NCBI GenBank assembly: GCA_027718005.1
Contig: JALLOP010000001.1
Span: 1-39,504, forward strand
Origin: Patescibacteria group bacterium AH-259-L07
Lineage (GTDB): Bacteria; Patescibacteriota; Patescibacteriia; UBA2591; UBA6264
Length of the DNA stretch: 39,504 nucleotides
Direction: 5' to 3'
Part shown: piece by piece, positions 4,258 through 35,558 of the stretch
Numbering within the stretch: position 1 is the first letter of the stretch
How the letters are laid out: each line of letters starts with the position of its first letter
The notes under the pieces: model-generated
Databases searched by the model: none
Seen by the model: the letters and a program-made list of their open reading frames with translations, nothing else
Told to the model about the DNA's origin: nothing
Made by a program: the position numbers and the translations under genes

Positions 4258-4349
4258 ACTGTTGCGAGGGCAAGGCTCGAAGCAATCCCAAATCAAAGAA
4301 TAGATTGCTTCGCTCCTTTCAGTCGCTCGCAATGACACTTCGTGTCATT
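4258..4349. repeat. GC-rich element, family 1 (CTGTTGCGAGG...GAAGCAATC...GATTGC...CGCTCGCAATGACAC-loop-GTGTCATT)
   Basis: Collinear with 6565-6650. Shares CGCTCCTTTCAGTCGCTCG with 35476-35494. Internal 9-bp and 8-bp hairpins. Confidence 0.85.
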
Positions 4350-4453
4350 TTCAGATTCCTCAATTATAAAAAGTATTTAGGAATAGCAGACTTAAAAATA
4401 AAAAATATCTAATCCTTTTCTGGTTAGATATTTTTATAAACTAATTTAAGTAT

Positions 4454-4780
4454 TTAAATTATTCTTATTCCTGTCCTCTTAATTTCAGAAACTAAAGGAT
4501 CATCGCCAACAAAATCCTTTGGATGAAAACCAACAGGGGCAATCATATTTCTAGCATCATGGTCGGTTCTTCTAACCCATAAGTATTCCAGTGGGTCAAT
4601 TCTGCCTTTAAATTTAGGCGAAATAATACAAATATCAATATCGCTCCATTTGTGAGAACTGCCCTTAGTATGAGAGCCGAAAAGTATTACCTGTTTTATA
4701 GGTAATTTATCTTTTTTAAGTTCATCAATATAATCTTTGATCTTTTTTTCTATTTGTTTGTTAACTCTTTTTTTAGCCAT
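4454..4780 (-). CDS. Nucleotidyltransferase-domain protein (MNT-type, putative antitoxin partner of HEPN)
   Basis: LFGSHTKGSSHKWSDIDICII matches the GS-x-G...D-x-D polymerase-beta-type NTase motif. It overlaps the upstream HEPN gene by 31 nt. Confidence 0.8.
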   Translation of the reverse strand: MAKKRVNKQIEKKIKDYIDELKKDKLPIKQVILFGSHTKGSSHKWSDIDICIISPKFKGRIDPLEYLWVRRTDHDARNMIAPVGFHPKDFVGDDPLVSEIKRTGIRII

Positions 4781-5154
4781 AGAATTAAATCATGAGTAAT
4801 TTTTAAATATTCCTCAGCATATTTTTTTGTAACTTTTTTATAAAATGCATATCTGAGAGTATCATATCGTGCTCGCATATTAAAAGTAGTAATAATTTCC
4901 AAATACTTTTTTCTCTCAGCACTAACTTCAATGCCAGTTTTTAAAATCAAACTGTAAAGGTCGTGGGTGAAAGGTGCTTGATTCCCGGTTCTGGAAACAA
5001 CCAATGCCTTAATTAATCTTTCTAGGGTTAAATGGCAAAAAAATAAAGAATAGTTATAATGTTTTAAATCAAGAAGACTTTGAGCAACCTGCCAGTCCTT
5101 TTTAGCGTTATCTTGCCAATAATCAACAAATTTTTTAATCTTTGTTTTATCCAT
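4750..5154 (-). CDS. HEPN-domain protein
   Basis: AQSLLDLKHYNYSLFFCHLTLERLIKALV...PFTHDLYSL is a typical HEPN helix pattern. It is paired with the NTase gene. Confidence 0.7.
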   Translation of the reverse strand: MDKTKIKKFVDYWQDNAKKDWQVAQSLLDLKHYNYSLFFCHLTLERLIKALVVSRTGNQAPFTHDLYSLILKTGIEVSAERKKYLEIITTFNMRARYDTLRYAFYKKVTKKYAEEYLKITHDLILWLKKELTNK

Positions 5155-5165
5155 TTTCTTAATTT

Positions 5166-6170
5166 TTATTCTTGTTCTTTGATTGCTTGAAGGATTTTGT
5201 TTTTAAGATCTGTGGTGATTTTAGGATTTTCTTTTAAATAATTTTTAGCATTTTCCCAGCCAACGCCAAGCTTTTCTTTGTCATAGTATAACGTGTTGCC
5301 TTTTTTCGCAACTAAATTATATTTTGCGCCTAAATTAAGCAAATCACCTGTATATGAAATTCCTTCGTTATACATAATCTCAAACTCGCATATTTTAAAT
5401 GGCGGTGCTACTTTATTTTTTACTACTTTTGCCTTTACCCGATTGCCTATTACTTCATCGCCTTTTTTAATTTGAGCTAAACGGCGCAGTTCAATTCTTA
5501 CTGATGAATAAAATTTTAAAGCTAAACCGCCCGTCGTAGTTTGAGGTGAGCCGAAATATACGCCGATTTTCATGCGGATTTGATTAATAAAAATAACTGA
5601 AGTTTTAGATTTGCTAACAATAGCGGTTAATTTTCTTAATCCTTGACTCATTAAACGGGCTTGAAGACCAATATGCTGGTCTCCCATCTCGCCTTCTATT
5701 TCTCTTTTAGGAGTTAATGCTGCTACAGAATCTATCACAATCACATCTATCCCATTTGAGCGAACCAATGTTTCAACAATCTCTAAGGCCTGCTCTCCTG
5801 TATCTGGCTGAGAGATTAACAAATCATTTACCTTTACGCCAATACGCTTTGCATATTCTGGATCTAAGGCATGCTCGGCATCAACAAAAGCGGCTATACC
5901 GCCTTTTTTTTGTGCTTCAGCTATGATATGAAGCGCTAATGTACTTTTTCCAGTCATCTCAAGTCCGAAAATTTCTATAACCCGGCCGCGGGGAATGCCG
6001 CCAACACCCAATGCTAAATCCAAGGAAAGACAGCCGGTTGGGATCACATCCACTTTCATTTTTTTTGCCTCTCCCAGCTTCATAATAGCCCCTTCGCCAA
6101 ACCGGGACTGCAACTGTTCAACTGCAGATTCTGCAGCTTTAACACGATCAGATTTTTGCTCTTTAGCCAT
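5166..6170 (-). CDS. recA: Recombinase RecA
   Basis: [45 protein letters not shown]. Confidence 0.97.
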
Positions 6171-6180
6171 AAATTTTTAA

Positions 6181-6963
6181 TTACTCTTCTAATACGACCT
6201 GGCGATATATGGTTCGCATACGCGAGTATTTTTTCTTGGCTGAAATCTCAATGGTATTTAAACCAGGCAATAACGCCACAACTTGTTTAAAACCCCCATA
6301 AGCATCAGCAGTGCCAATTAATTGATTATTTATAAAAACTTCTATATGAGGTTTTGTTGTGCCTTGTACGACAATGCTGGACTTTGAAGCTATAAATTCA
6401 TCTGGCGGATGTATGATCTCAATTAATGGCGGTGCTATCGCTGTTTTAATATTAACACCAATATATAATAAGATCAAGACAAGAATTACCAGTACTATAA
6501 TATTTTTAGAATAAACTAACTTTAAAGGGATGCGGGATGACAAGTGGGTGTGAGATTGCGGAGCCTGTTGCGAGGCCGTAGGCCGAAGCAATCTTAAAAC
6601 AGAGGAGAGATTGCCACGTCGCTCGCTCCTCTCGCTCCTCGCAATGACAAAAGAGGGTCGACGGCCTCCTCGCAATGACAAGGGGGGACGGGATGACAAA
6701 GGAGTGCTATATTCTTGTTCCCATTGATTTACAATACTTTGCGCATCTAATTCTAACGCCTCTGCATAGCGTTTGAGAATCCCGCGCGTATACGTTGCGC
6801 TGGGAAATTTATAAAAATCATCTGCTTCTAAATATTCTAAATATTTTTTAACAATGCTCGTGCTTTGTTCTACATCTTTAAGACTCAATCCCTTATCCTC
6901 ACGCGTTTGTTGTAACACATGCCCTAAGGTATCTGATCTCACTTGTTTTGAAGTAAAAGTCAT
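6181..6963 (-). CDS. RodZ-like helix-turn-helix membrane protein
   Basis: N-terminal HTH (LSLKDVEQSTSIVKKYLEYLE), one TM segment and a C-terminal beta-rich domain. The linker is encoded by a GC-rich repeat. Confidence 0.6.
   Translation of the reverse strand: MTFTSKQVRSDTLGHVLQQTREDKGLSLKDVEQSTSIVKKYLEYLEADDFYKFPSATYTRGILKRYAEALELDAQSIVNQWEQEYSTPLSSRPPLSLRGGRRPSFVIARSERSERRGNLSSVLRLLRPTASQQAPQSHTHLSSRIPLKLVYSKNIIVLVILVLILLYIGVNIKTAIAPPLIEIIHPPDEFIASKSSIVVQGTTKPHIEVFINNQLIGTADAYGGFKQVVALLPGLNTIEISAKKKYSRMRTIYRQVVLEE
6565..6690. repeat. GC-rich element, family 1, embedded in frame in the RodZ-like CDS
   Basis: CTGTTGCGAGGCCGTAGGCCGAAGCAATC...CTCGCAATGACAAGGGGGGACGGGATGACAAA is homologous to 4258-4349 and to the tail of 35466-35558. 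It is translated as ...RSERSERRGNLSSVLRLLRPTASQQ... Confidence 0.85.
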
Positions 6964-6974
6964 TTTTTTAAAAC

Positions 6975-7100
6975 CCTAAACTCTAAACCCTAAACTCTAA
7001 TCAAATCCAAAATCCTAAACTCAAAATTCAAAACGGTTTAGATATTCGAATTTTGATATTAGATATTGTTTAGGATTTCGAAATTAGAATTTAGGATTTC
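6975..7100. repeat. CTAAAC-type heptamer array (CCTAAAC TCTAAAC CCTAAAC TCTAATC...) facing an inverted, degenerate GTTTAG-type arm
   Basis: Read directly. It fills the ftsK-stop to RodZ-like-start spacer. Confidence 0.85.
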
Positions 7101-9330: not shown

Positions 9331-9405
9331 TATAAGAACCATTCCTCACTTCGTCGCGCTAAGCGCGACTTCGCTCGTCAGAACCTTGAAATTCCGTCAG
9401 GGTTC
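9331..9405. repeat. GC-rich repeat, family 2 (reverse orientation), with an inserted GTCGCGC-TAA-GCGCGAC hairpin
   Basis: ATAAGAACC...CGTCAGAACCTTGAAATT matches the reverse complement of 40-88 and 24183-24218. It lies 53 nt upstream of the ftsK start. Confidence 0.7.
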
Positions 9406-9526: not shown

Positions 9527-9580
9527 ATTTTACATTTTGCATTGTCATTTTGCATTTTGATTTTTGATTTTTGAATTTGG
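9527..9580. repeat. ATTTTGC/ATTTTTG-type 6-7-nt array (about 8 units) spanning the rpoC stop codon
   Basis: ATTTTAC ATTTTGC ATTGTC ATTTTGC ATTTTG ATTTTTG ATTTTTG AATTTGG. It encodes the beta-prime tail ...NSKIKNQNAK. Confidence 0.85.
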
Positions 9581-12500
9581 AAGGCCGGTTCCCGCGGGGA
9601 TTAATTGTCCCACAATTACATTTTCTTTTAACCCGCGTAAATAATCAGGCCGCCCGCTAATTGCAGCATTAACTAACACACGAGATGTTTCTTGAAAACT
9701 CGCAGCAGAAAGCCAGCTGTCCGTAGAAAGAGAAACTCTCGTGATACCAGTTAACAATTCTTTCACTTTGGCAGGTCTCTTATCTATTTTTTTAGCTTTT
9801 TCATTTGCCTCAATAGCATATGACTTTGGCACAATTTCTCCTGGTAAAAGATCAGTATCGCCAGAATCCACTACTAATACGCGGGAAAATATTTGACGAA
9901 TAATGAGCTCAACATGTTTGTCATTTAATTTTTGTCCCTGAGATGAATAAATATATTGAATTTCCCGCAATATATATTTTTCTACCTCTTCTTTACCGCG
10001 CAATTCATAGAGTTCACGCAAATCCAAACTTCCATCAGTTAATTGCTGACCCTTCTCTACCTTATCTTTGTCTTTAACCCATATGGTATATCCGGCCACA
10101 TCATGCTCTTCATGTTTTTCCCCCTCATATGTTACCGTAACCACCGTATCTTTAATACTGACTTTTCCGCTGTGGCGTGCTTTAACTTTTTGTTTTCCAA
10201 TCGTTGCAATACTATCACCTTTTTTAACTTTTTGCCCTTGTTTAACTTTAAGTTTTGCTTTTTTGCCCGCAATGGTATACGTATCTTCTTGTGTGCTAGA
10301 ATAGGTAATCCTAATTCTTTTTTGATCATCTGATGAGATCATCTTAACAGGGCCCTTATGTCTAGCCATAATTGCTTTCCGCTTTACTGGCCTAACTTCA
10401 AACAGCTCTTCAACGCGCGGAAGCCCTTGCGTAATATCTCTCCCTGCAACACCACCGGTATGAAACGTTCTCAAAGTCAGCTGCGTTCCTGGCTCGCCAA
10501 TACTCTGCGCTGCAATAATACCAACTGGTGTACCAGGCGTAACCGGCTCATTATAACTTAAATCATAACCATAGCATCGCGCGCATATACCGCGCACTGA
10601 TTGACACGTTAATACCGATCGAATCCTTACCTCTTCAGGATCTGCATTTTGTATTTCCTCTGCCTTATCATATGATATAACATCATTTTTGCGAACAATA
10701 ACAGCCTTTGATTTTGGGTCATGGATTGCCTTTGCTGCTACCCTGCCAAATAAACGCGTTTGCCAATTTTCTCCCATTTTTGTATTGTCTTCACGCGTGA
10801 ACTTAAAACTCTTTGTACTCTTACAATCATTTTTAGTAATAATAATGTCCTGGCATACATCAACCATGCGCCGGGTTAAATATCCCGCACTCGCAGTACG
10901 AAGCGCGGTATCAGATACACCTTTTCGCGAACCATGGGTAGAAATAAAATATTCTAACACATTAAATCCTTCCTTAAATGAAGATTTAATAGGGAGCTCA
11001 ATTAATCTGCCGGTTGGCGAAGATACAATACCACGCATACCAAACATTTGGGTAAGCTGTGCCCATGAACCCCGTGCACCGGATTCAACCATAGAAAATA
11101 TGGGACTAAATTCAGGATCTCGTTTTCTTACCACCTCAGTAATTTTATCTTTTGTGCCAATCCACACTTCAATACTTTTTAAATATCGTTCATTCTCAGA
11201 CAATAATCCTGTCTCGTATTGATTTCTAACCTCATCAATACGCTTTTCTGCCTCGGCAAGGATCTCTTTTTTTTGCTCCAAGTCAGGCAAATCATCCATT
11301 CCCCACGAAAGTCCTGATCCTGTTAAGTACGTGAGTGTAGTTTGCTTAATTTGATCCAACAATTCAACTGCCTTATCTCTGCCATATTTTTGAATTGATT
11401 TAATTACAATTTGTTTTAACGTCCCTTTATCAACCACGGTATCCATAGTATAAATTCCTTTTGGCAGAATTGCATTAAATAACAGCCGTCCCACACTCAC
11501 TTGTCTGCGTTGAGATCCCTCGCTCGCTCGGGATGACACCTCCGGTGTCACTCTAACGTTAATTTTCTCTTGAAGCGTAATTTTCCCGGTTGAGTATGCC
11601 AACACTGCTTCATCAATACTACTAAAATTCGGATATTCTTTTTTTTTATCTTTTTTGTGAATATAGGTCATATAATACGCGCCCCAGATCATATCTTGCG
11701 TTGGGGTCACAATTGGCTCGCCCGTTGCCGGCTTTAACAAATTGTGTGTTGAGAGAATAATATTTTTTGCCTCATCACGTGCCTGACTCGTAATAGGAAC
11801 GTGTACCGCCATTTGATCTCCATCAAAATCAGCATTAAATGCTACACATACCAAGGGATGGATTTGAATCGCTTTTCCTTCAATTAATACTGGCTGGAAC
11901 GCTTGAATGCCTAATCGATGAAGTGTTGGCGCACGATTCAATAATACATAGGTATCTTTAATAATTTCTTCTAAAATAGCATATACCTCTTCAGTGCCTG
12001 TCTCAATTAAACGATTGGCGGACCTCACATTATGAACAATTTCTCGCTTAATTAATTCGGAAGCAATAAACGGCTTAAACAATTCCACTGCCATAAGCTT
12101 TGGCAGACCGCACTGACTTAACTTCAGGCGCGGTCCAACCACAATAACAGATCGGCCTGAATAATCTACGCGCTTCCCAAGTAAATTCTGTCGAAATCGC
12201 CCCTGCTTTCCTTTTAAAATATCAGCTAAGGATTTCAACGGCCTTCGCTGGCCAGTCGAGGCAATGGTTGTTTTCCCGCTTCGCATTTCATTATCAATTA
12301 ATGCATCAACTGCTTCTTGAAGCATTCTCTTTTCATTGCGTAAAATCACCTCTGGTGCATGCAAATCATACAATCGTTTTAAACGATTATTGCGATTGAT
12401 TACCCGTCGATACAAATCATTTAAATCTGAAGACGCAAACCTGCCGCCATCTAACGGCACTAATGGCCTTAGTTCTGGTGGAATCACCGGTACCGCACGG

Positions 12501-13387
12501 AGCACCATATACTCTGGCTTGATATTATTGGTAATAAAATTGCGGACATACTTTATACGCTGGAGTAATTTTTTCTCTTTAGTAGGATTGGTTGTTTTTT
12601 CCCGCTTCTTTTCAAGTTCTCGTGCAAGTTTAGATAAATCAAGATTTTCAAGTAATTTTAAAATTGCCTCTGCACCAATACCAGCCTCAAAAATATGCCC
12701 ATAGCTCATCGAAAGCTCGCGATATTCTAACTCAGTTAACAAACTCTTTTCATATAACTCTGTTATTTCACGCTTTGTTTCTTTATATGTTGTCGTTAGA
12801 TCCTCAAGTTTTTTTGCATATTCCTCTGAATTGTTATGTTTTTCATGTTTAAGCGCTTTTTTCTCATCATTAAACTCTTGCTCTAATTTTTTGTGCGCTT
12901 TTTCTTTTAAATCTTCATCAACATGGGTAATGATAAAATTAGCAAAATAAACCACTTTTTCTAATGCCGCAATTGACATATCTAACAACAGCCCGATCTT
13001 TGATGGGACGCTGCGCAAAAACCAAATATGGGCTACCGGTGCAGCAAGTTTAATATGGCCCAAGCGTTCACGCCGTACTAAAGATCGCGTTATCTCAACG
13101 CCGCAACGATCACACGTGATACCACGATAGCGCAGCTTTTTATATTTGCCGCACGCACACTGCCAGTCTTTTACCGGACCAAAAATTCTTTGACAAAATA
13201 AGCCGTCGCGCTCTGGCTTACGGCTTCGATAATTAATGGTTTCTGGCTTCATGACCTCCCCATATGACCACTCCTCCATAATCTCTTTTGGTGATGCGAG
13301 ATGTAAACTTATCGCATCAAAATCAGCCTGATGTCTTCTTCTATCAGACGGTAACGTTAATGTGGAAATTGTTGATGGTGTCGGCAT
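9545..13387 (-). CDS. rpoC: DNA-directed RNA polymerase subunit beta-prime
   Basis: Zn-binding CxCGKY...CDRCGVE, catalytic NADFDGDQMAVH, and full-length collinearity. Confidence 0.98.
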   Translation of the reverse strand: MPTPSTISTLTLPSDRRRHQADFDAISLHLASPKEIMEEWSYGEVMKPETINYRSRKPERDGLFCQRIFGPVKDWQCACGKYKKLRYRGITCDRCGVEITRSLVRRERLGHIKLAAPVAHIWFLRSVPSKIGLLLDMSIAALEKVVYFANFIITHVDEDLKEKAHKKLEQEFNDEKKALKHEKHNNSEEYAKKLEDLTTTYKETKREITELYEKSLLTELEYRELSMSYGHIFEAGIGAEAILKLLENLDLSKLARELEKKREKTTNPTKEKKLLQRIKYVRNFITNNIKPEYMVLRAVPVIPPELRPLVPLDGGRFASSDLNDLYRRVINRNNRLKRLYDLHAPEVILRNEKRMLQEAVDALIDNEMRSGKTTIASTGQRRPLKSLADILKGKQGRFRQNLLGKRVDYSGRSVIVVGPRLKLSQCGLPKLMAVELFKPFIASELIKREIVHNVRSANRLIETGTEEVYAILEEIIKDTYVLLNRAPTLHRLGIQAFQPVLIEGKAIQIHPLVCVAFNADFDGDQMAVHVPITSQARDEAKNIILSTHNLLKPATGEPIVTPTQDMIWGAYYMTYIHKKDKKKEYPNFSSIDEAVLAYSTGKITLQEKINVRVTPEVSSRASEGSQRRQVSVGRLLFNAILPKGIYTMDTVVDKGTLKQIVIKSIQKYGRDKAVELLDQIKQTTLTYLTGSGLSWGMDDLPDLEQKKEILAEAEKRIDEVRNQYETGLLSENERYLKSIEVWIGTKDKITEVVRKRDPEFSPIFSMVESGARGSWAQLTQMFGMRGIVSSPTGRLIELPIKSSFKEGFNVLEYFISTHGSRKGVSDTALRTASAGYLTRRMVDVCQDIIITKNDCKSTKSFKFTREDNTKMGENWQTRLFGRVAAKAIHDPKSKAVIVRKNDVISYDKAEEIQNADPEEVRIRSVLTCQSVRGICARCYGYDLSYNEPVTPGTPVGIIAAQSIGEPGTQLTLRTFHTGGVAGRDITQGLPRVEELFEVRPVKRKAIMARHKGPVKMISSDDQKRIRITYSSTQEDTYTIAGKKAKLKVKQGQKVKKGDSIATIGKQKVKARHSGKVSIKDTVVTVTYEGEKHEEHDVAGYTIWVKDKDKVEKGQQLTDGSLDLRELYELRGKEEVEKYILREIQYIYSSQGQKLNDKHVELIIRQIFSRVLVVDSGDTDLLPGEIVPKSYAIEANEKAKKIDKRPAKVKELLTGITRVSLSTDSWLSAASFQETSRVLVNAAISGRPDYLRGLKENVIVGQLIPAGTGLPNSKIKNQNAK
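11512..11553. repeat. GC-rich element, family 1 fragment, in frame inside rpoC
   Basis: GAGATCCCTCGCTCGCTCGGGATGACACCTCCGGTGTCAC shares GAGATCCCTCGCTC...GCTCGGGATGACA with 35466-35500. It is translated as ...PEVSSRASEGSQ... Confidence 0.8.
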
Positions 13388-13419
13388 GCGAGGAAATTAA
13401 TGTTAATTAATTTTCGAGC

Positions 13420-13518
13420 ACCCCCCACTTTCTAAAATTCGAATATTTTGGGGATAAAGAAGTTTTATAAGTATTTTCGCATTAAAAATAATTTTTCGGG
13501 TTTTAGAAAGTGGGGGGT
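13420..13518 (-). promoter_or_regulatory. Perfect 18-bp inverted repeat (ACCCCCCACTTTCTAAAA / TTTTAGAAAGTGGGGGGT) with a 63-nt loop in the rpoB-rpoC spacer
   Basis: Arms at 13420-13437 and 13501-13518, read directly. Confidence 0.8.
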
Positions 13519-13524
13519 CTTCGC

Positions 13525-18488: not shown

Positions 18489-18694
18489 ATCTCACCTTTT
18501 TCAACATCAACTTCTAAAATATCAGCAATTTGAGCATCAAAAATACAAAAATCTGCGCCAGAGTCTATAAGCGCAGCATATCGCAATTCCTTCCCGTCGG
18601 CATTGATTTTAATAGGAGTAATTGGTTTAAGAAGTGATAATCCGAAATATTCCGATCTCTGCGGAAGAAGTAATTTAAGGTAGGGAAATTTCAT
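18485..18694 (-). pseudogene. Truncated paralogue of the retropepsin-like aspartic protease (69 aa, ends just after the DSGAD region)
   Basis: ALIDSGADFCIFDAQIADILEVDVEKG aligns with residues of the 134-aa protein at 21603..22007. The stop overlaps the murE ATG (ATGA). Confidence 0.55.
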
Positions 18695-18894
18695 AACAAA
18701 GAAAAACCACCAACATAAGGAATAATTTTTGTTGGCACGCGAAAGAGGATCGGATCTTTATAACCTTTCATTTTAGCTTTTTCTATTACTTCTTTTACTG
18801 TTTTGCCGCTTGCTACAACTGTCTTTTCATCGCTTTTTAAACCAATCCATAAACCTTTATATTTTTTACAAATTTCAGTCCAATCAATTGCCAT
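18691..18894 (-). CDS. Small DUF5678-like protein, copy B
   Basis: MAIDWTEICKKYKGLWIGL...KTVVASGKT..EVIEKAK.KGY. I count 43 of 65 positions identical to copy A by hand. ATGA overlap with the downstream protease fragment. Confidence 0.6.
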   Translation of the reverse strand: MAIDWTEICKKYKGLWIGLKSDEKTVVASGKTVKEVIEKAKMKGYKDPILFRVPTKIIPYVGGFSLL

Positions 18895-18942
18895 AGTAAC
18901 ATTTTACCATAAAAAAATTTTTTGTAAATACCTACTTGTTTA

Positions 18943-20433
18943 CTACTTTGCTTTTTTAATAACTTTTACTATTCCCTTCTCCGCATCCACTTCCACGAAA
19001 TCACCGTCTTTTAAAACCTTGGTGACTTTAGCCACGCCCACTAAACAAGGGATTCTAAATTCGCGAGAAACAATGGCAGCATGAGAAGCAATACCCCCCT
19101 GTTCGGTGATAATCGCACCAGCTTTCTTCATGGCTATAATCATCTGTGGGTTAGTAGAAAAAGAAACTAAAATATCACCCTTCTCAAGCTTTTCCAGATG
19201 ACCAACACCTATCACTATCTTAACCGTACCAGTAACCTTGCCTACACAAGCGACGTTTCCTTTAAGTTGTTTAACTTGTTCCACTTCTTCTCCTTTTATC
19301 TCTAAGAAGACCCTTATCTTTTTTGCCCCCTCTCCCACGTAAACAGATTCTTGATTATTATCTATATAATAAACGCATAATTTCTTTCTTCTAAAATAAA
19401 GTTCTCTAATTTCATCTTTTTTATATTCATGGGGTAAAATATATTTAAAAAATTTAAGAGGAAGGTGCCATCTTTTGGCTAGTTCTTTTTGGATCAACTC
19501 ACAGGCATAAAATCCATGAAAAAGCACTTCTTTACGATACTGCTTATAATAAGTTTGATCTCTGATAATAAAAAATCTCTTTCTTAATAATTTACTAAAA
19601 CCTAACTCCTTTTCCATTCTATCCTGTTCTTTTTTGATCTTTTCCAGTTCATTCTTTTTTTCTAAATACATTTTTCTCAATCTTTTTATATCATTTTTTA
19701 TAAGCAACTGCTTTAACTCTTTTTGAAAGTAATTAAAATCTAAGGCAGGCCCAACATATCCGAAATTAATCCAACAATATTGTTTCTGATGTTTCTCTAT
19801 CCATTTTCTAGTTTTGGTAGAATTTAATCTCAAATTTTCTTTTAATATTTTCATGGCTATCCTTAATAAATCCAGCCTTTCCTCTGTCAGATATAATGAC
19901 CTAATTGGGCTGGATAATAATCCAAAGATCTGTACTGATGTCTGATCTATTTTTTTATTTTTGAGTTTATTCTTAATCTCTTGTATTAATCCTTTGGCAA
20001 TATAATTATTAGAACCATATTCTGTTAAAGGCGCAAGTTGACCCCATTTATTAAGATTTAACATCTGTTTATTAATTTGCTTAAAATAATCAACAAGCTT
20101 ATCTTCTCTAACCTTAAAAATATCTTTGTCTTCAATCAATTTAGCGATACGGATAACTTCCTTGGCGTATTTATCTGTATACCTATTCATCTTTTTATAA
20201 AACTTATCATTGAAAAATAGATTGTAAATCTTTTTGCCAAATTTATGAAAATCTTCTTGGCTCGCAAAAAATTCTACCCCTTTCTCAGAAAAAATTAACA
20301 TTATAGGATTCAAATTCTTCCTAAAGAAAGGTCTAATCTTTGTCCCCCACGACTTAGCAAATATATAAAAAGGAAACAAATTAGCTTGTCTCTCTTGAGT
20401 AACAAATTCCCACTTTATTTTTTTATGAGACAT
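18943..20433 (-). CDS. Protein with C-terminal PEP-utilising-enzyme mobile (swivel phosphohistidine) domain and an uncharacterised 400-aa N-terminal region
   Basis: The C-terminus (ILVSFSTNPQMIIAMKKAGAIITEQGGIASHAAIVSREFRIPCLVG) is the classic swivel-His motif. Confidence 0.8.
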   Translation of the reverse strand: MSHKKIKWEFVTQERQANLFPFYIFAKSWGTKIRPFFRKNLNPIMLIFSEKGVEFFASQEDFHKFGKKIYNLFFNDKFYKKMNRYTDKYAKEVIRIAKLIEDKDIFKVREDKLVDYFKQINKQMLNLNKWGQLAPLTEYGSNNYIAKGLIQEIKNKLKNKKIDQTSVQIFGLLSSPIRSLYLTEERLDLLRIAMKILKENLRLNSTKTRKWIEKHQKQYCWINFGYVGPALDFNYFQKELKQLLIKNDIKRLRKMYLEKKNELEKIKKEQDRMEKELGFSKLLRKRFFIIRDQTYYKQYRKEVLFHGFYACELIQKELAKRWHLPLKFFKYILPHEYKKDEIRELYFRRKKLCVYYIDNNQESVYVGEGAKKIRVFLEIKGEEVEQVKQLKGNVACVGKVTGTVKIVIGVGHLEKLEKGDILVSFSTNPQMIIAMKKAGAIITEQGGIASHAAIVSREFRIPCLVGVAKVTKVLKDGDFVEVDAEKGIVKVIKKAK

Positions 20434-20550: not shown

Positions 20551-21495
20551 CTACAATGTGGTGATAGGCCTGCTCTGAACAACGTAAAATCTTCCACTGT
20601 CTAAACACCACTCAATGTCCTGCGGAACCTTGTAATGCTCCTCTATTTTCTGACATAACTTGGCCAGTTTCAATATTTGTTGATTGGTAAGTTTTTGTTT
20701 TTCCTGTTTTGATTGAGGAACTTTTGCCCGTTTCACTCCTCTTCTTAAACATTGTGTAATCATCATATTTTGCTCAGATATATTAATATCTAATAAACAC
20801 CAATCTTTCTTATGTATTATATAGGTATCAGGCGTGATTTCTCCTCCCACAATCGCCTCTCCTAAACCATAACCTGCCTCAATAACCATTTGATCTCTGT
20901 CCTCAGTCACCGGATGAACGGTAAAACAAATACCTGATATTTCAGATTGAATCATTGCCTGTACCACCACGGCAACCGATACTGCTTGCTTATGCAAACC
21001 TTTTTCAAACCGATAAAAAATAGCCCGCGGCGTAAACAACGATGACCAGCATTTTTTAACTGATTCAAGTAAATTTTTTTGAGTCACATTAAGATAGGTC
21101 TCTAGTTCCCCCGCCCATGACGCAATAGAAGAATCCTCAGCTGTTGCTGAGGAGCGCACTGCCACATACTTTGCTTTTAATTCTGTAAATCCGTTTAAAA
21201 TTTCTTTGCCTAATTGTTCTGGAAATTCTGCATCGTAAATTAGATCTCTAATTTTTTTTGATGCCTGCTCTACTGATTTAATATCTTTATGGTTTACCTT
21301 ATGCATTGCCGCTTCAATCTCAACCCCTAAATCTGTTTTATCTAAAAATCGATCAAATGCTGGCGCTAGTACCACAAACCCTGGCGGCACCGGAATTTTT
21401 GTTTGTGTCATCTCTCCCAACGAAGCTCCTTTACCGCCCGCAATAGCAACATCATTTTTAGATAATTGTTTAAATGATTTTATAAACTCACTCAT
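20551..21495 (-). CDS. PPDK_N-type ATP-grasp (pyruvate phosphate dikinase / PEP synthase N-terminal nucleotide-binding domain) stand-alone protein
   Basis: VAIAGGKGASLGEM...IPVPPGFVV...VAVRSSATAEDS...SWAGE...DIEW...VQSRPIT. Confidence 0.85.
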   Translation of the reverse strand: MSEFIKSFKQLSKNDVAIAGGKGASLGEMTQTKIPVPPGFVVLAPAFDRFLDKTDLGVEIEAAMHKVNHKDIKSVEQASKKIRDLIYDAEFPEQLGKEILNGFTELKAKYVAVRSSATAEDSSIASWAGELETYLNVTQKNLLESVKKCWSSLFTPRAIFYRFEKGLHKQAVSVAVVVQAMIQSEISGICFTVHPVTEDRDQMVIEAGYGLGEAIVGGEITPDTYIIHKKDWCLLDINISEQNMMITQCLRRGVKRAKVPQSKQEKQKLTNQQILKLAKLCQKIEEHYKVPQDIEWCLDSGRFYVVQSRPITTL

Positions 21496-21602: not shown

Positions 21603-22007
21603 TTATTTATTTTTATTTCGTAGCTTTAAATCTACCTCTTCTTTAAGCAAATCAAATTTTACCACAAAAATATCAAAAAATCCTTTTTGTCCAACAATGC
21701 CATAACCGAATTTACCTATTTTCCTTAAAAATGCGGCCTTAACCTTAAACCGCCAACTGCCGACTTCAATTTCTAAATCATGAAAATAAATAGGCTCATT
21801 AGCGCCAGTAACTCCTGCAACTTCTCCTTTTTTGCCTTTTTCAACATCAATCTCTAAAATATCAGCAATTTCAGCATCAAAAACACAGAAATCCGCTCCT
21901 GAATCAACTAATATTTCATAGGGAACGGATATATTATTGTAAATAACCTTGATAGGAATAACTGGTCTTAAAATGCGAGTACTATATTTTTTATACGGAA
22001 ACTTCAT
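21603..22007 (-). CDS. Retropepsin-like (clan AA) aspartic protease
   Basis: 134 aa with ILVDSGADFCVFD (D-S/T-G-A active-site signature) and a size typical of single-lobe retropepsin-like proteases. Confidence 0.7.
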   Translation of the reverse strand: MKFPYKKYSTRILRPVIPIKVIYNNISVPYEILVDSGADFCVFDAEIADILEIDVEKGKKGEVAGVTGANEPIYFHDLEIEVGSWRFKVKAAFLRKIGKFGYGIVGQKGFFDIFVVKFDLLKEEVDLKLRNKNK

Positions 22008-22013
22008 AATATC

Positions 22014-22211
22014 TCACAGTCCAAAGCCAACATACGGAATTAAACGTTCCGGCATTTTTGTTAAAATAGGCATTTTATAACCCTTTTTCTGCGCTTTCTC
22101 CCATGCTTCTTTAGCAGTCTTCCCAGAGGATACAACTGTTTTTTCATCATCTTCTAATGCGACCCAGAGGCCTTTATACTTTTTATAAATTTTAGTCCAA
22201 TCAATTGCCAT
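22014..22211 (-). CDS. Small DUF5678-like protein, copy A
   Basis: MAIDWTKIYKKYKGLWVALEDDEKTVVSSGKTAKEAWEKAQKKGY, immediately upstream of the protease. Confidence 0.6.
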   Translation of the reverse strand: MAIDWTKIYKKYKGLWVALEDDEKTVVSSGKTAKEAWEKAQKKGYKMPILTKMPERLIPYVGFGL

Positions 22212-22243
22212 AATTTTTATTAATTACCAATATCGTTAATTAT

Positions 22244-30585: not shown

Positions 30586-30626
30586 ATAATGATTATACCA
30601 AAATACCACGATAATAAAACATATGC

Positions 30627-30979: not shown

Positions 30980-31048
30980 TGTATCCTCCTTGCTTGATAG
31001 CTTGATAGTTGTAATGTAAAGTTCGTCTTTACATTTTCTTATACAAAT

Positions 31049-31077
31049 ATTATAGCACATTTTTATATTCCTGTCAA
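31049..31077 (-). promoter_or_regulatory. Consensus sigma70 promoter TTGACA-N17-(TGC)TATAAT
   Basis: -35 at 31072-31077 and -10 at 31049-31054 on the minus strand, followed by the 5' UTR hairpin ATGTAAAG/CTTTACAT. Confidence 0.65.
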
Positions 31078-31210
31078 GCAAAAATGTTGGGGATAAATTA
31101 AAGGATAGCCAAACACATTTTTACCAATAAAAGCCACCGGCTGAGTTACGGTATTGCACCCAAGCGAACTATTATCACCAATAATAGGTCAAATGCTGAT
31201 AAAATCCAGC

Positions 31211-31942
31211 TCAATCCTTAAGAGAAGGTCCTTCATACTCAATATCTTTTGTATCTAAACGGCGGTAGGGTTTTTCATCAACCATTTCTTCATAAAGATG
31301 AGCCGCAAGTCCTGGCAGACGGCCAAGGATAAAGAAAAACTTTCCTATTCTCCAGTCAAAACCAAGTTCAGAAATAATAGCCGCGATTGCTCCATCAATA
31401 TTTATGACTAGCTTCTTTCCTGTTTGACGCTTTAATTCCTCCTGCAGCGCGTATGCACGAGCTATATATTTGCCATAACAACCAAGCTCTTTTGCACGCT
31501 TAAAAATTATTGTTGTCCGTGGATCTTCAACTTCATATAGTTTATGTCCATAACCAGGCAATTTCTCTTTCTTCTCTAATACATAGGAAACGATCGCTTC
31601 CGGCGTTTTATTGGACTGTAAATTGCGCGCCGTCCCTTCAATCGCGCCTCCATGCCATGATCCCATAGTTAAGATGCCTGCGGATAGCGCGGTGTTGAAA
31701 GAATTTCCTGTCGAGGCAACGGTCCGTGTGACAAACGTTGACGGCGCCTCAATTCCATGTTCAATAGATGCAACAAGAATAGTATTAAGTATTTCTTCTT
31801 CGTACTTCTCTGGAAAAGCACCTCTAAGCATTAAAAAAACTGCTTCAGAAAAAGAGTATTTCCCAATAAGATCGAGCAATTTATGCCCGCGAATGTAGAG
31901 TGTACCGTCTTTATGTACACTTATTTTTGTGCGCCATTTCAT
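31211..31942 (-). CDS. Citrate-synthase-fold small protein, citryl-CoA lyase-like
   Basis: 243 aa with SWHGGAIEG and GYGHKLYEVEDPR, which are counterparts of the citrate synthase HGGA and GFGHRVY..DPR motifs. Confidence 0.7.
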   Translation of the reverse strand: MKWRTKISVHKDGTLYIRGHKLLDLIGKYSFSEAVFLMLRGAFPEKYEEEILNTILVASIEHGIEAPSTFVTRTVASTGNSFNTALSAGILTMGSWHGGAIEGTARNLQSNKTPEAIVSYVLEKKEKLPGYGHKLYEVEDPRTTIIFKRAKELGCYGKYIARAYALQEELKRQTGKKLVINIDGAIAAIISELGFDWRIGKFFFILGRLPGLAAHLYEEMVDEKPYRRLDTKDIEYEGPSLKD

Positions 31943-31951
31943 AATTATTCG

Positions 31952-32845
31952 TTAAAGGAATTGTTTTACCAACGACGGAATCTCTTCTAATGTATTGGCA
32001 ATGGGTATCCCAGCGCGTCGTAATGCTCTTACTTTTGACATATAGCTTCCTTTCTTCCTATAAACAATAGCACCAGCGTGTCCTAAGACCGTACCTTCTG
32101 GTAGGTCCATAGTAAATTTTCCTGCAACAATGACGACAATTGGTTTGGTACATTTTTTTTGCTTAACACATTCTGCAATCCGTTCCTCATAGGTTCCGCC
32201 CACTTCACCAAAACACACGACAACTTTTGTACCTTTATCAAGCTCGAACAACTCAAGCATATCAACAAAGTCAGACCCGACAATTTGATCACCGCCGATC
32301 CCGATAACTGTACTCTGCCCAATACCTGCATTGCTTAAAATCACTGAGATTTCAGCAGTCATCCCGCCGCTCTTTGAAATAACTCCTACCGAACCAGGGT
32401 GGAAGATATGACGAACTTTACCACTTCCAATACTTCCGATCTTTGCCCTACCAGGAGAAATGATTCCTACTGAAGCAGGCCCAACTATTTGGCAATTCTG
32501 CTTTCGTGCCCACGCTATAACCTTCGCGCTGTCCTGTACAGGCACATGCTCAGCAAGGATGTTTATAAGAGGGATGTTTGCAAACATTGCTTCCATCGAT
32601 GCATCTTTTACCGCAAGTGCAGGAACCGTAATAAGAGAAGCATTAATCTGGGGATGATAATGCGCCGCTTTCTCAACGGTATCATATACTGGCACTCCAT
32701 CGACGCGTTGCCCGCCTTTCCCCGGTGTCACGCCTGCACAAACGTTGGTACCATACATACGCATTTCTCTTGAGGCGCGTGAGCCTTCACTTCCGGTAAT
32801 GCCTTGAATAAGCACGTTAGTTTTTTTATCGATCAAAATTGCCAT
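31952..32845 (-). CDS. Succinyl-CoA synthetase alpha-like subunit (CoA-binding, phosphohistidine loop)
   Basis: VLIQGITGSEGS, ISKSGGMTAE, GHAGAIV. Confidence 0.85.
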   Translation of the reverse strand: MAILIDKKTNVLIQGITGSEGSRASREMRMYGTNVCAGVTPGKGGQRVDGVPVYDTVEKAAHYHPQINASLITVPALAVKDASMEAMFANIPLINILAEHVPVQDSAKVIAWARKQNCQIVGPASVGIISPGRAKIGSIGSGKVRHIFHPGSVGVISKSGGMTAEISVILSNAGIGQSTVIGIGGDQIVGSDFVDMLELFELDKGTKVVVCFGEVGGTYEERIAECVKQKKCTKPIVVIVAGKFTMDLPEGTVLGHAGAIVYRKKGSYMSKVRALRRAGIPIANTLEEIPSLVKQFL

Positions 32846-32868
32846 ATCAATCCAAGATAAAGTTTCCC

Positions 32869-33936
32869 TTATTTATACGCAAGATCTACCATAATCTTTG
32901 CGGTTTCTGCCATTGAGATCTCGGATCCAAAAATATGAAATTGATATCCTTGTTCTTTCGCAACTTGCCTAAGCATCGCAACCGCCTGTTCTTGTCGAGG
33001 GCCATCCCTCCTAATTACAATAGGGTACGTTGGTTTTGGTCTGACATACCCGAGCCCATTCACAAATCCGCGCATTGTCTCATAAATATCAGTAAAATTT
33101 GCAGTTCCACCAACAACCCAACATCCCTTAAGTCCTTTTCTCCTCAGTACCTGTTTTGTTAAGTCCTCTACAATATGTGCCGGGGGATTGCCTGAATATT
33201 CAGTATAATTTGCAGGACGCCCGCCATGGAAAATAAGGGCGTCGATGTTTAAAAGAGAGGCACCACCACCAGATGCCAAAATTGCAATATCACCACCGAG
33301 TTCAATAAAACGACGTTTGCCAGGCGCTACTTTTTCATCATCAAGGATAATCTTCGCGTCACCAGCAACAAATGCTCCGCCTTTCGTTTTAAAAAGCGGG
33401 TTAATCTCTGCCAGGATTGCATACTCAGAAATAAAAAGTTTCCATAGATTTTTTACTATCCCCGCAACTTTTAAGATGTCAGAAGAAGGAAATTTTGCCT
33501 GAGATAAAGCGCGTCGAAATAAAAACAAACAAGAATCAAACGTAAAATCAAGAGGAACTACTTTTGCCCTGCTGATGCCTGTCCCTCCTTGCGCAGATAC
33601 TGCGATCACCGGAGAACGTGTGCTTGTATCATAGCTGAAGGAAACATAGTATTCAGAAATTGCAGCAATCCGTTCCTCTACCAATACTTTTCTAATATTC
33701 TCGTTGTGTACCTTCATATTACATAGTTTTTGTATCTTCTTTCGTGCAGAAAAAAGGGTAGATGCTGGTAAAATTCCTCCTGCCTCTTTCCTTCCGCCAA
33801 AAAGGGTCTGTGCCTTAAGCACATATGGCGGCTTGAAAGTGATTTTGCCACGAGGAGAATTCAGTACAACCCGACGTGGAGTGGGAATGCCATATTTCTC
33901 AAACAAATTTTTACCTTCGTACTCGTAAAGTCTCAT
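32869..33936 (-). CDS. Succinyl-CoA synthetase beta-like subunit (ATP-grasp)
   Basis: MRLYEYEGKNLFEKYGIPTP, EINPL, ILASGGGASLLNIDAL..HGG.PANY. Confidence 0.8.
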   Translation of the reverse strand: MRLYEYEGKNLFEKYGIPTPRRVVLNSPRGKITFKPPYVLKAQTLFGGRKEAGGILPASTLFSARKKIQKLCNMKVHNENIRKVLVEERIAAISEYYVSFSYDTSTRSPVIAVSAQGGTGISRAKVVPLDFTFDSCLFLFRRALSQAKFPSSDILKVAGIVKNLWKLFISEYAILAEINPLFKTKGGAFVAGDAKIILDDEKVAPGKRRFIELGGDIAILASGGGASLLNIDALIFHGGRPANYTEYSGNPPAHIVEDLTKQVLRRKGLKGCWVVGGTANFTDIYETMRGFVNGLGYVRPKPTYPIVIRRDGPRQEQAVAMLRQVAKEQGYQFHIFGSEISMAETAKIMVDLAYK

Positions 33937-33955
33937 TTGAACCCTTCTTTTATTA

Positions 33956-33989
33956 AAGTTTGGATACAGGCATCATTCCTTTCAAACTT
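33956..33989. repeat. Conserved 34-nt hairpin (AAGTTTG-20 nt-CAAACTT), second copy, between the map stop and the sucC-like start
   Basis: 16 nt (TTAAAGTTTGGATACA) are identical to 24154-24169. Confidence 0.85.
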
Positions 33990-34776
33990 ATATTTTAGTC
34001 AAGACTTCACAACCTTTTTTAGTAATTACAATGGTATGTTCAAAATGAGCAGACAAACTGCCGTCATCAGTAGCAACGGTCCATCCATCATCTAATGTTT
34101 TTACTTTCCAATGGCCAATATTGACCATTGGCTCAATTGCTACCGTCATACCTTGCTTCAAAACAATACCGGTATCTGGTTTGCCATAATTTAAAATAGT
34201 TGGCTCTTCATGAAGATTTTTGCCAATGCCATGCCCGGATAGTTGCCGAACAACTGAAAACCCATTTTTTTCAACATAAGACTGCACCGCATACGAGAGA
34301 TCACCTAAATGGATTCCTGGCTTAATTGTATTAAGCGCAATATCTAGAGATTTTTTCGTTACTTTAATTAATCTTTTTGCCTTGCTTGATATTTTGCCTA
34401 CTGGTATGGTCACTGCCATATCAGCATAATATCCCTGATACAACACCCCGCAATCAAGTCCAATAATATCACCAGATTGAATCACTTGATCTTTTGATGG
34501 AATAGCATGAACCACCTGTTCGTTAATTGACGTACATAGGGTATGAGGATAAGCACCCCGGCTTCCCGGGGAAGCCGGGGTGCGGGGAGGAGGGTAACCT
34601 TTAAAAGCTGGCTTTGCGCCAGCTTTTACAATTAAATCTTCTGCTAAGCCATCCAATTCAAATGTTGAAATACCGGGTTTAACATCAGATACAACGCGCG
34701 AAAGTACACTGGCAAGTATTTTGCCGGCAGTTCGCATAATTTCAATTTCTTCTGGAATTCTAATAAAAATTACCAT
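33988..34776 (-). CDS. map: Methionine aminopeptidase type I
   Basis: EEIEIMRTAGKIL, SINEQVVHAIP, DIIGLDCG, GHGIG, IEPM, HFEHT. Confidence 0.95.
   Translation of the reverse strand: MVIFIRIPEEIEIMRTAGKILASVLSRVVSDVKPGISTFELDGLAEDLIVKAGAKPAFKGYPPPRTPASPGSRGAYPHTLCTSINEQVVHAIPSKDQVIQSGDIIGLDCGVLYQGYYADMAVTIPVGKISSKAKRLIKVTKKSLDIALNTIKPGIHLGDLSYAVQSYVEKNGFSVVRQLSGHGIGKNLHEEPTILNYGKPDTGIVLKQGMTVAIEPMVNIGHWKVKTLDDGWTVATDDGSLSAHFEHTIVITKKGCEVLTKI
34554..34582. repeat. 29-nt GC-rich hairpin palindrome (13-bp arms CACCCCGGCTTCC / GGAAGCCGGGGTG) in frame inside map
   Basis: Read directly. It is translated within ...GYPPPRTPASPGSRGAYPH... Confidence 0.9.
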
Positions 34777-34783
34777 AATCTCT

Positions 34784-35443
34784 CTACGTTATCTTTTGAT
34801 CTAATTTTTGTACTGTTTCTTTAAAAACGCTCTCAATTGATTGCTCTCCATTAACTTTGATCAACATGTTACGCTGTTGATAAAACTCTATTGCCGGCAT
34901 CACTTTCTCATGAAACCACTGTAATCTTTTTCTAACTGCCGTCTCATCAGTATCATAATCTCTCACAACCACCTTTCCTCCGCATCGAGGACAAATTTTT
35001 TTATCTCGTCCAATTAACACTGTTTTGCACTGACTGCAAACTGAGCGATTTAAAAGACGTCTGAGAGCCTCTTCGTCGCTCACCTTTATTAAAATAGCAA
35101 TCCTTTTCTCTGCTATCTTCAAACTATTCATTATTTTATCCAGATCTTTTGCTTGACCAAGCGTACGCGGATAACCATCTAATAAAATTCCTTTATCTGG
35201 CTCGATATTCTGAAAGGCCTCGCGCATCAAAGCTAACATTATATCATCAGGTAAATGCCGACCACTTTTATGAATTTCATGTACCTCTCTTCCTAATTCA
35301 GAATCCTCTTTTGCTTTAGCACGAACTAATTCTCCTGCTTCTATTTTTTGGAGATTATATTTTTTAACTAAAAGATCTGCCTGTGTTCCTTTGCCAGACC
35401 CTGCTGGCCCTAATATGATAAGATTAAAAATTTTCTTTGACAT
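34784..35443 (-). CDS. adk: Adenylate kinase (zinc-lid type)
   Basis: ILGPAGSGKGTQ, GYPRT, and the lid CSQC...CPRCG. Confidence 0.95.
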   Translation of the reverse strand: MSKKIFNLIILGPAGSGKGTQADLLVKKYNLQKIEAGELVRAKAKEDSELGREVHEIHKSGRHLPDDIMLALMREAFQNIEPDKGILLDGYPRTLGQAKDLDKIMNSLKIAEKRIAILIKVSDEEALRRLLNRSVCSQCKTVLIGRDKKICPRCGGKVVVRDYDTDETAVRKRLQWFHEKVMPAIEFYQQRNMLIKVNGEQSIESVFKETVQKLDQKIT

Positions 35444-35465
35444 ATAATATCTTGGTTAGATAATG

Positions 35466-35558
35466 TGAGATCCCTCGCTCCTTTCAGTCGCTCGGGATGA
35501 CATTCTTCTTTGCCATTCCGCACGAAGTGCGGAATGACAAGGGGGAACGGAATGACAA
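35466..35558. repeat. GC-rich element, family 1, in the secY-adk spacer
   Basis: GAGATCCCTCGCTCCTTTCAGTCGCTCGGGATGACA, the hairpin CATTCCGCAC-GAA-GTGCGGAATG, and the tail GGAATGACAAGGGGGAACGGAATGACAAA. Confidence 0.85.

Follow-up and report, generated by a model that had tools for sequence, protein, structure and literature searches.

The 39,504-nucleotide contig of the single-cell genome AH-259-L07, a member of the Patescibacteria, carries a short GC-rich palindromic repeat at four loci, two of them intergenic and two lying in frame within rpoC and a RodZ-like gene, and the question that this raises is what kind of element the repeat is and how it came to be written into coding sequence. The whole contig (37.3% GC) is referred to here as the window. 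The repeat family is not specific to the lineage but is found across phyla, it has been recently active in the AH-259 lineage, and it is best filed, not as a new kind of element, but as a GAGCG-centred variant in a patescibacterial host of the CGTC/TGTC-tagged repetitive extragenic palindromic (REP) or SRM-like repeats. From about 4.4 kb on nearly all genes of the window are on the minus strand, and the order along the plus strand is a nucleotidyltransferase/HEPN pair, recA, the RodZ-like gene, ftsK, rpoC, rpoB, alaS, adk, secY and a partial ribosomal-protein cluster. Comparison was made with a sister single-cell genome, AH-259-L05 (L05; GCA_027717985.1), whose RpoC is 90% identical to that of AH-259-L07 (L07) and of which about 40 kb syntenic with the window were used as loci L001 and L278 (genes 85-96% identical in nucleotide sequence); with the outgroups L122 (83% RpoC identity), L124 and L125 (71%), syntenic over about 32 kb with the region rpoB-recA; and with L279, a relative with 92% SecY identity.

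Read on the gene-sense (minus) strand, a full unit has the form TGTC - AT xyz - GAGCG..AGCGA - z'y'x' AT - C, in which the tag TGTC is unpaired, the stem opens with an A-T and a T-A pair followed by three covarying pairs, the conserved centre is GAGCG(N)AGCGA, in the window often with an extra mini-hairpin, and the return stem, which closes the palindrome, is followed immediately by a C. Basic units measure 25-36 nt, with a Watson-Crick stem of 5 pairs and, in the four window units, a centre of 10, 19, 19 and 25 nt. The tag stands 5' of all four full units and of all nine heads in the window, and the AT...AT stem is present in 4/4 units, the triplet forms being ATTGC/GCAAT, ATCCC/GGGAT and ATTCC/GGAAT; the 3' tail is CTC, CTA or CCC, and CCA in related patescibacterial units of loci L008 and L020. 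The canonical centre holds mini-hairpins of the GCGAAGC type, and such hairpins are unusually stable. Around full units there are inverted partner units and arrays, with a period of 18-24 nt, of 5'-truncated half units (TTGTCATYSCG and a C-rich spacer of about 7 nt), which are always 5' of a full unit, both here and in other phyla, and solo and half units predominate. The modules that the preliminary description had listed are all present, but the SR of its CGCTCG(SR)ATGACA is the 3' half of the covarying stem and its 'tail' modules, of 18-nt period, are 5' half units. The degenerate unit that may be called module A (CTGTTGCGAGG...GAAGCAATC) has the orientation opposite to that of the full unit, and since it lies tail-to-tail with a full unit in copies 1 and 2, both of these contain inverted dimers. 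The head hairpin of copies 1 and 3 consists of the TGTCAT head and its own inverted copy (gene-sense ATGACAC-GAA-GTGTCAT and TGACACC-GGA-GGTGTCA). The four copies are GC islands (49-64% against 37.3% for the contig), their units are all in sense orientation to the flanking genes, and when folded as single-stranded DNA they are far more stable than shuffles (z=-2.7 to -5.8), with the exception of the composite in the RodZ-like gene (z=-1.6).

That a single modular family occupies the four loci, as had been claimed from the letters of the window, was borne out by models trained on foreign units only, and all heads are on one strand. The covariance model R1, built from 37 units from unrelated phyla and independent of the window, matched the unit in rpoC with 32.9 bits (E=2.6e-7), that in the secY-adk spacer with 32.2 bits (E=4e-7) and that of copy 1 with 21.9 bits (E=4.5e-4), and gave the long-loop unit of the RodZ-like gene 8.6 bits only; nhmmer, run with a profile of those foreign units, found window copies at 1.2e-5, 1e-4 and, for copy 1, 5e-3. 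There are 9 matches to TGTCATYSCG in the window, all on the minus strand and all at the four loci, against 0.13 on average, and never more than 2, in 200 shuffles, and the 9 exact matches to CGSRATGACA are similarly confined to one strand and the four loci. The looser pattern of GTCAT, three nucleotides, a loop, the complementary three nucleotides and ATC matched 7 times against an expectation of 0.74, the four loci accounting for four of these matches.

The repeat is not confined to this type of genome: its unit is frequent among Acidobacteriota, Gemmatimonadota, Chloroflexota and Bacteroidota and in metagenomes. A search of species-representative genomes for two heads (TTGTCATYSCG) yielded at least 120 loci in many phyla; the matches listed include neither L07 nor L05, and a good many of them arose by chance at high GC or are of other kinds, but many go on with GAGCG-N-AGCGA, a complementary triplet and ATC, all of them features outside the search pattern. 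The three variable stem pairs are Watson-Crick in units picked without reference to the 3' stem, with at least nine triplets represented (CCC/GGG, TCC/GGA, TGC/GCA, TCT/AGA, GTT/AAC, TTC/GAA, TCA/TGA, CGC/GCG and CCT/AGG). In alignment A2 there were 21 double-change cells against 6.6 +/- 2.0 in shuffles, none of 500 of which reached 21, and pairing stood at 80.5%, falling to between 7 and 60% when the partner column was slid. The first stem pair was AU in 25/37 rows of the foreign alignment and the second UA in 36/37, most of the others being register-shifted TGC types. A long-loop form, GAGCGA-[mini-hairpin]-GAGCGA, is common as well (at least 120 metagenome loci), its stems being complementary in 118 of 121 metagenome matches listed, where 1/4 would be expected, and its inserts often being mini-hairpins such as GCCC-GCA-GGGC or CC-AAA-GG. 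The C after the palindrome, which lay outside both search patterns, was present in 48/48 and 121/122 foreign units. The canonical unit was found in just 31 IMG/VR stretches and was essentially absent from PLSDB plasmids by BLAST, with three partial haloarchaeal matches only; in other phyla the orientation of units is unbiased relative to genes. A literature search with sequence strings of the repeat gave nothing relevant.

The two intragenic copies had been described as in-frame insertions specific to the lineage, and the orthologues confirm it. Copy 3 (11512-11550) lies inside rpoC (9545-13387, minus strand; beta' subunit with Pfam Rpb1 domains 1-5) and consists of the full unit TGTCATCCCGAGCGAGCGAGGGATCTC (11512-11538, minus strand; core, read 11538-11514, TGTCATCCCGAGCGAGCGAGGGATC), which is translated in frame as (V)SSRASEGS(Q), and a head hairpin at 11534-11550 (TGACACC-TCC-GGTGTCA). 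The protein reads ...INVRV-TPEVSSRASEG-SQRRQVSVGR in L07 and ...INVRV-D-SERRQVSVGR in L05, so that TPEVSSRASEG in the former corresponds to a single D in the latter, and the segment occurs in none of 58 further patescibacterial sequences in a 61-sequence protein alignment, a few of which have unrelated insertions at the same point. At the level of the DNA, pairwise alignment sets AGAGT-TGAT-TCTGAGCG in L05 against AGAGT-GACACCGGAGGTGTCATCCCGAGCGAGCGAGGGA-TCTCAACG in L07, the L07-specific stretch (11516-11549, minus strand) being 34 nt in place of the TGAT of L05, which adds 30 nt net, or 10 codons, and no target-site duplication is seen when the filled and empty sites are compared. The site, which by alignment offsets corresponds roughly to residues 553-570 of E. 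coli beta', is variable in length among orthologues and among solved RNA polymerases: HMMER alignments with Thermus beta' stop exactly there and other structures have 8-20 residues; from this length variation alone it is argued that the insertion point would be exposed.

Copy 2 (6533-6700, minus strand) is a composite in the RodZ-like gene (6181-6963, minus strand; 260 aa, helix-turn-helix domain HTH_25, Pfam PF13413, E=4.5e-21) and occupies the linker between the helix-turn-helix domain and the transmembrane helix. It is wider than the 6565-6690 first given for it, although all four loci are as originally located, and it comprises a head (6533-6543), module A (6565-6593, plus strand), a long-loop full unit (6607-6649; TGTCATTGCGAGGAGCGAGAGGAGCGAGCGACGTGGCAATC, read 6649-6609 on the minus strand) and half units at 6671-6681 and 6689-6700; it holds the direct repeats D5 and D8, and its translation includes ...SSRPPLSLRGGRRPSFVIARSERSERRGNLSSVLRLLRPTASQQ... 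RodZ-like orthologues of about 215-226 aa have a short basic linker at this position without repeats, and the linkers of the L07 and L05 proteins (260 and 247 aa) have been expanded by different repeat composites. A look-up by exact protein sequence gave no record for the RodZ-like protein or for RecA. Both host open reading frames (ORFs) run uninterrupted through the copies, and since they do, the inserts are most simply read as translated; the peptides that mark them are VRVTPEVSSRASEGSQRR in RpoC and FVIARSERSERRGNL in the RodZ-like protein, and no homologous segment without the nucleotide repeat turned up among the orthologues. Both intragenic composites are stop-free in 2/3 sense frames, and with so few stop codons in the unit, continuity of the ORF needs little beyond a length divisible by three.

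Of the two intergenic loci, copy 1 (4259-4348) lies between the genes for a DUF4143 ATPase and a nucleotidyltransferase. It is made up of module A (4259-4287, plus strand), a degenerate TGC-type unit CTGT(--)TTGCGAGG..CGAAGCAATC that is inverted, tail-to-tail, relative to the full unit TGTCATTGCGAGCGACTGAAAGGAGCGAAGCAATC (4303-4337, minus strand; also a regular-expression match), and a head hairpin, ATGACAC-TTC-GTGTCAT (4332-4348). Module A forms part of the direct repeat D8 with 6565-6614 and, when the DNA is folded, base-pairs with 4303-4337 (z=-5.8); there is no unit in the orthologous L05 spacer. Copy 4 (35467-35559), in the secY-adk spacer, has a full unit (TGTCATCCCGAGCGACTGAAAGGAGCGAGGGATCTC; 35467-35502, minus strand; core, read 35502-35469, TGTCATCCCGAGCGACTGAAAGGAGCGAGGGATC) 23 nt upstream of the adk start codon, a fully palindromic unit with a 14-bp stem, TTGTCATTCCGCAC-TTC-GTGCGGAATGGCAA (35510-35540), and a 5' half unit with C-rich spacer, TTTGTCATTCCGTTCCCCC (35541-35559, minus strand), recovered both in D5 and in the regular-expression scan.

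The comparison of L07 with L05 indicates how recently these copies were acquired. The two differ at nearly every site (the DUF4143-nucleotidyltransferase, recA-rodZ and rpoC-ftsK spacers, rpoC and alaS), and the secY-adk spacer is in three different states in L07, L05 and L279. In L05 a 24-nt repeat occurs 13 times in alaS, ending in a full unit (L001 2435-2783 = L278 18400-18750), and the alanyl-tRNA synthetase (AlaRS) gains 111 aa, (PPLSSRAT)x13, in frame between ...VNTIKELS and EKAVR..., that is, between the aminoacylation core and the next helical domain (720 against 609 aa). A unit at the 3' end of L05 rodZ adds 8 aa (...APSLVIPSD*), another (NEIASAPTAPRNDN) makes up part of the N-terminus of a Wzz-like protein, antisense to wzz, and a copy in the L05 rpoC-ftsK spacer has no counterpart in L07. 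The host ORFs of all intragenic copies in both genomes are open and in register downstream, and the copies in genes have a net length divisible by three and are found in length-variable loops or linkers (the rpoC loop, the RodZ juxtamembrane linker, the AlaRS inter-domain loop and the Wzz N-terminus). The unit in the L07 secY-adk spacer is identical at 32/32 nt to that in the L05 recA-rodZ spacer, a non-orthologous site; no units are present in the roughly 32 kb of L122, L124 and L125, and degenerate half units are found in a different spacer of L279. It is on these filled and empty sites, identical non-orthologous units and unit-free nearer outgroups that recent activity of the family in the AH-259 lineage is established. 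There is also a weak R1 match at L001 11616-11636 (15.2 bits, E=0.04; ATTGTGAGCGGAGCGAACAAC), in conserved coding sequence around codon 539 of L05 rpoC, which may be a matter of chance or may be a proto-site like that at the rpoC insertion point.

In-frame palindromic repeats are known from Rickettsia, where elements of the RPE-1 type are Rickettsia-specific palindromic repeats of about 100-150 bp, reportedly described by Ogata et al. in 2000. Like these, the window copies are palindromic repeats lying in frame within conserved genes, their host genome is reduced and AT-rich, they occupy positions that protein function tolerates, and their presence varies among relatives; unlike these, they have a basic unit of 25-36 nt, from a family found across phyla. 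The likeness to Rickettsia palindromic elements, drawn originally as a comparison, is closer than analogy: the TGTC tag, AT-first stem and 3' C are shared with the CGTC-tagged REP superfamily, in which Di Nocera et al. (2013, PMC3733652) placed RPE-4 and RPE-6 of Rickettsia conorii together with the Neisseria dRS3, the link being by way of that assignment and not by way of RPE sequences. Members of this superfamily have stems starting A-T, T-A, a short unpaired 3' tail and, commonly, inverted dimers, with intragenic copies in several species, including copies in tRNA synthetase and repair genes, and have no dedicated transposase (PMC3733652). The window units share the tag in its TGTC form, the AT-first stem, the 3' C, the inverted dimers, the in-frame intragenic copies and the lack of an adjacent transposase; they differ in their tail (CTC, CTA or CCC, where the four defined families have a 3-nt tail, mostly CCA) and in their half-unit tandem arrays, which are not described for those families, and the host phyla listed in PMC3733652 are without Patescibacteria.

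A second point of reference comes from Neisseria, where Chenal et al. (2025, PMC11893778) found that Ssn, a single-domain GIY-YIG (cd10448) nuclease, has as its cognate sites the NTS, whose sequence CGTCATTCCCGCGMAVGCGGGAATCYRG includes dRS3, and related SRM hairpins; it binds the hairpin only as single-stranded DNA and cuts a few nucleotides upstream. Binding of SsnA depends above all on the C that follows the palindrome, and cleavage is controlled by the three bases that precede the palindrome; an SRM typically stands on either side of an ssn gene, and what has been shown for Ssn is cleavage and an effect on transformation, nothing beyond (PMC11893778). The window units agree with SRM/NTS in the head HGTCWY (here TGTCAT), in the 20-50-nt hairpin directly after it, with GTC 5' and C 3' of the palindrome, and in occurring both dispersed and clustered; they depart from SRMs, which have 6-8-bp GC stems and a short loop, in having 5 Watson-Crick pairs and the GAGCG(N)AGCGA centre. 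PMC11893778 makes no mention of Patescibacteria or of intragenic copies.

Ssn-type GIY-YIG nucleases acting on single-stranded DNA are accordingly a candidate cognate enzyme family for the window units, a suggestion made by analogy with Neisseria and with the gene neighbourhoods of foreign units. A GIY-YIG motif scan of a set of 280 loci gave 9 single-domain ORFs of 87-107 aa in 8 loci, all foreign; five of the nine were run against Pfam and all five match PF01541 (E=1e-14 to 6e-18), by which family they were classed. In 7/8 of the loci TGTCAT..ATC hairpins lie on both sides of the ORF, of the GAGCG type in L070, L156 and L235, and this is the SRM-ssn-SRM architecture of PMC11893778. No specific NCBIfam model matches these foreign proteins, and the PDB holds a remote UPF0213 relative only. 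The bracketed loci are L156, L070, L235, L215, L205, L088 and L089, with hairpins of several sub-types; L156 has two GIY-YIG genes one after the other, both with units of their own on either side, and their ORFs as called extend into units, with the ends 'VIPRSRATRNL' and 'PPPDSSLRSE'. A Pfam scan of 130 ORFs within 2 kb of units at 31 loci revealed no family in more than 2 ORFs and no transposase among the 25 families listed, the cut-off of at least 90 aa and the top-25 list having hidden the small GIY-YIG ORFs; a provisional statement that no enzyme is associated with the units was dropped once the motif scan had revealed them. Pfam finds no transposase in the window itself.

We hold, with a confidence somewhat above even, that the copies are widespread single-stranded DNA hairpin repeats of the CGTC/TGTC-tagged REP superfamily, including the Ssn-recognised NTS/dRS3 (SRM) sequences, which spread by nick and repair and are carried as passengers. 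On this account a unit would extrude as a hairpin once its strand becomes single-stranded, would be recognised in that form by an Ssn-type nuclease encoded in trans and nicked a few nucleotides 5' of the tag, and template-switch repair or recombination with another copy would then install or convert a unit. Slippage at the stable hairpin would give rise to the half-unit arrays 5' of a full unit, and selection would purge out-of-frame or disruptive insertions so that those in loops and linkers remain. The window copies are probably neutral or mildly deleterious passengers and not host functions. A stronger formulation can be offered only tentatively, as one that may well prove wrong: that the AH-259 pair is a record of SRM-like repeats multiplying by single-strand nick-and-copy, and thereby writing peptides into RNA polymerase beta', AlaRS and RodZ, and that the GAGCG variant is a large class of Ssn substrate missed by the published pattern.

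Several observations weigh against the passenger explanation as set out. Multiplication by nick and repair is something that we infer, and the route by which SRM and CGTC repeats multiply is unsettled even in Neisseria. There is no GIY-YIG gene in the 39.5-kb L07 contig or in the approximately 40 kb of L05 that were read, and with the gene missing from these 80 kb or so and the rest of the genomes beyond reach, a cognate enzyme is unproven for the AH-259 lineage. The published SRM pattern, HGTCWYN(0-2)YYVSBRHN(0-5)WNVSBRGN(0-2)RNCYNB, has 0 matches in the window, L001 and L278; canonical GAGCG units fail it too, and the NTS control matches. The stem of 5 bp and centre of 10-25 nt are unlike the 8-9-bp stems and 4-5-nt loops of the four defined CGTC families (PMC3733652). 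The empty rpoC site of L05, GATTCTGAGCGCAG, resembles the 5' half of a unit, so that there was no clean cut-and-paste and conversion at a proto-site is as possible as insertion. Translation of the inserts is taken from ORF continuity only. Finally, whilst all solo units of L07 and L05 are on one chromosomal strand, including the wzz unit that is antisense to its gene, they number only 8, their bias cannot be related to the direction of replication, and GC skew in the window tracks gene orientation.

Some of the same features would be expected if the units were REP- or REPIN-like and were moved as single-stranded hairpins on the lagging-strand template by a Y1 HUH transposase, either RAYT (TnpA-REP) or the TnpA of IS200/IS605, and this we consider unlikely, though it is the alternative that survives best. 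The unpaired 5' tetranucleotide, the inverted dimers of copies 1 and 2, the one-strand bias and the lack of a target-site duplication at rpoC would all be accommodated, since a hairpin tag, inverted dimers, strand bias and absence of duplication also belong to single-stranded DNA transposition of the IS200/IS605 type (cited in PMC11893778). The resemblance to REP/REPIN-RAYT systems extends to the small size of the hairpin and to a non-autonomous element served by a single-copy nuclease or transposase acting in trans. However, the tag is TGTC and not GTAG, the scan near units at 31 loci showed no association with a RAYT, Di Nocera et al. did not find a tyrosine transposase with CGTC-type repeats beside it (PMC3733652), and near units elsewhere it is GIY-YIG genes that are flanked, with no transposase among the families listed. 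Nor do the copies look like a miniature inverted-repeat transposable element, with terminal inverted repeats and a target-site duplication, given that there is no duplication at rpoC and that solo and half units predominate.

It may be asked instead whether the elements are selected by the host, as hairpins for mRNA stability, processing or translation (for example at adk) or as chromosome-organiser sites, the intragenic copies being by-products, and this is decidedly unlikely. All window units are sense to the flanking genes, copy 4 stands immediately upstream of adk where L07 lacks the AAGGAGG kept in L05 and L279, covariation of the stem means that structure is maintained, and REPs of other bacteria are often transcribed elements of 3' untranslated regions (PMC3733652). 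Orientation is random relative to genes in other phyla, however, and the wzz unit of L05 runs antisense to its gene; two genomes at 90% identity do not keep their units at the same positions; SsnA does not bind RNA (PMC11893778); and no Rfam family matches, searches of the whole window at gathering thresholds and of 4200-6760 at E<=10 giving a tRNA and noise only.

That the intragenic segments are local slippage minisatellites or low-complexity sequence, similar to the intergenic repeat by composition only, is very improbable: the 18- and 24-nt periods of the RodZ linker and L05 alaS are multiples of three and the sites are disordered or variable, but the rpoC insert is a single complete unit recognised by a model from other phyla, the 32/32-identical units are at unrelated loci, a full canonical hairpin unit terminates every array and the shuffles speak against a compositional artefact. 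An artefact of assembly or of multiple displacement amplification is hardly credible, for although the source is a single-amplified genome and such amplification creates inverted chimeric junctions, the unit is present in hundreds of independent contigs of metagenome-assembled genomes and metagenomes from other phyla, related copies occur in a second single-amplified genome and in Logan assemblies, and reading frames are kept across every intragenic copy.

The significance of the repeats is chiefly that L07 and L05 provide paired filled and empty sites, one of them in rpoC, from which a spreading mechanism can be read and tested. The class extends to Patescibacteria in its GAGCG-centred form. 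The published SRM definition misses a large and widespread subclass, and since the pattern overlooks the GAGCG-centred form, current counts of Ssn substrates are probably underestimates. For annotators, GC-rich in-frame segments of the 'SSRA...' or 'VIARSE...' type in core proteins of the candidate phyla radiation should be expected to derive from repeats and not to represent functional domains or errors of assembly.

A second repeat family reuses the centre TCGCTTCGCTC (GAGCGAAGCGA) and is present at 9336-9393 of the window, at 6690-6720 and 7510-7560 of L278 and, as the reverse complement, at 56-101 of L001. Its stems are TGAC/GTCA and TTGT/ACAA with constant flanks GAACC...AGAACCTTGAA, and the window copy has an additional GTCGCGC-TAA-GCGCGAC hairpin; the shared centre suggests that the GAGCG(N)AGCGA mini-hairpin is a module common to several families. 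The adk leader retains an AAGGAGG Shine-Dalgarno sequence in L05 (L278 11380-11416) and L279 (1440-1474) and not in L07 (35444-35470), where the spacer has been remodelled by repeats, and expression of adk in L07 may depend on read-through from secY. The rpoB-rpoC spacer (13415-13523) contains a 34-nt inverted repeat, 82% complementary with a 41-nt spacer (CGAGCACCCCCCACTTTCTAAAATTCG... / ...CGGGTTTTAGAAAGTGGGGGGTCTTCG), that does not belong to the family discussed above.

Heptamer-type tandem repeats occur just outside genes at 6964-7014, 2201-2225, 39119-39143 and 35560-35593 of the window and at 13825-13860 of L001. They comprise CCCTAAA/CTCTAAA and GTAACCN/TTACTGG, with runs of TAGATTT(A/T) directly after the stop codon of secY in L07 and of rpoC in L05, and are reminiscent of cyanobacterial short tandemly repeated repetitive (STRR) heptamers. 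A 70-nt direct repeat, 94% identical, links 878-947, in a gene for a Schlafen/AlbA_2-HATPase_c_4 protein, with 1666-1735, just upstream of a DUF218 gene, and a segmental duplication of about 400 nt (74-87% identity) is found at 18495-18895 and 21835-22212. Pyruvate phosphate dikinase is split between ORFs at 18943-20433 and 20551-21495, with PPDK_N in one and the PEP-utilizers domain in the other.

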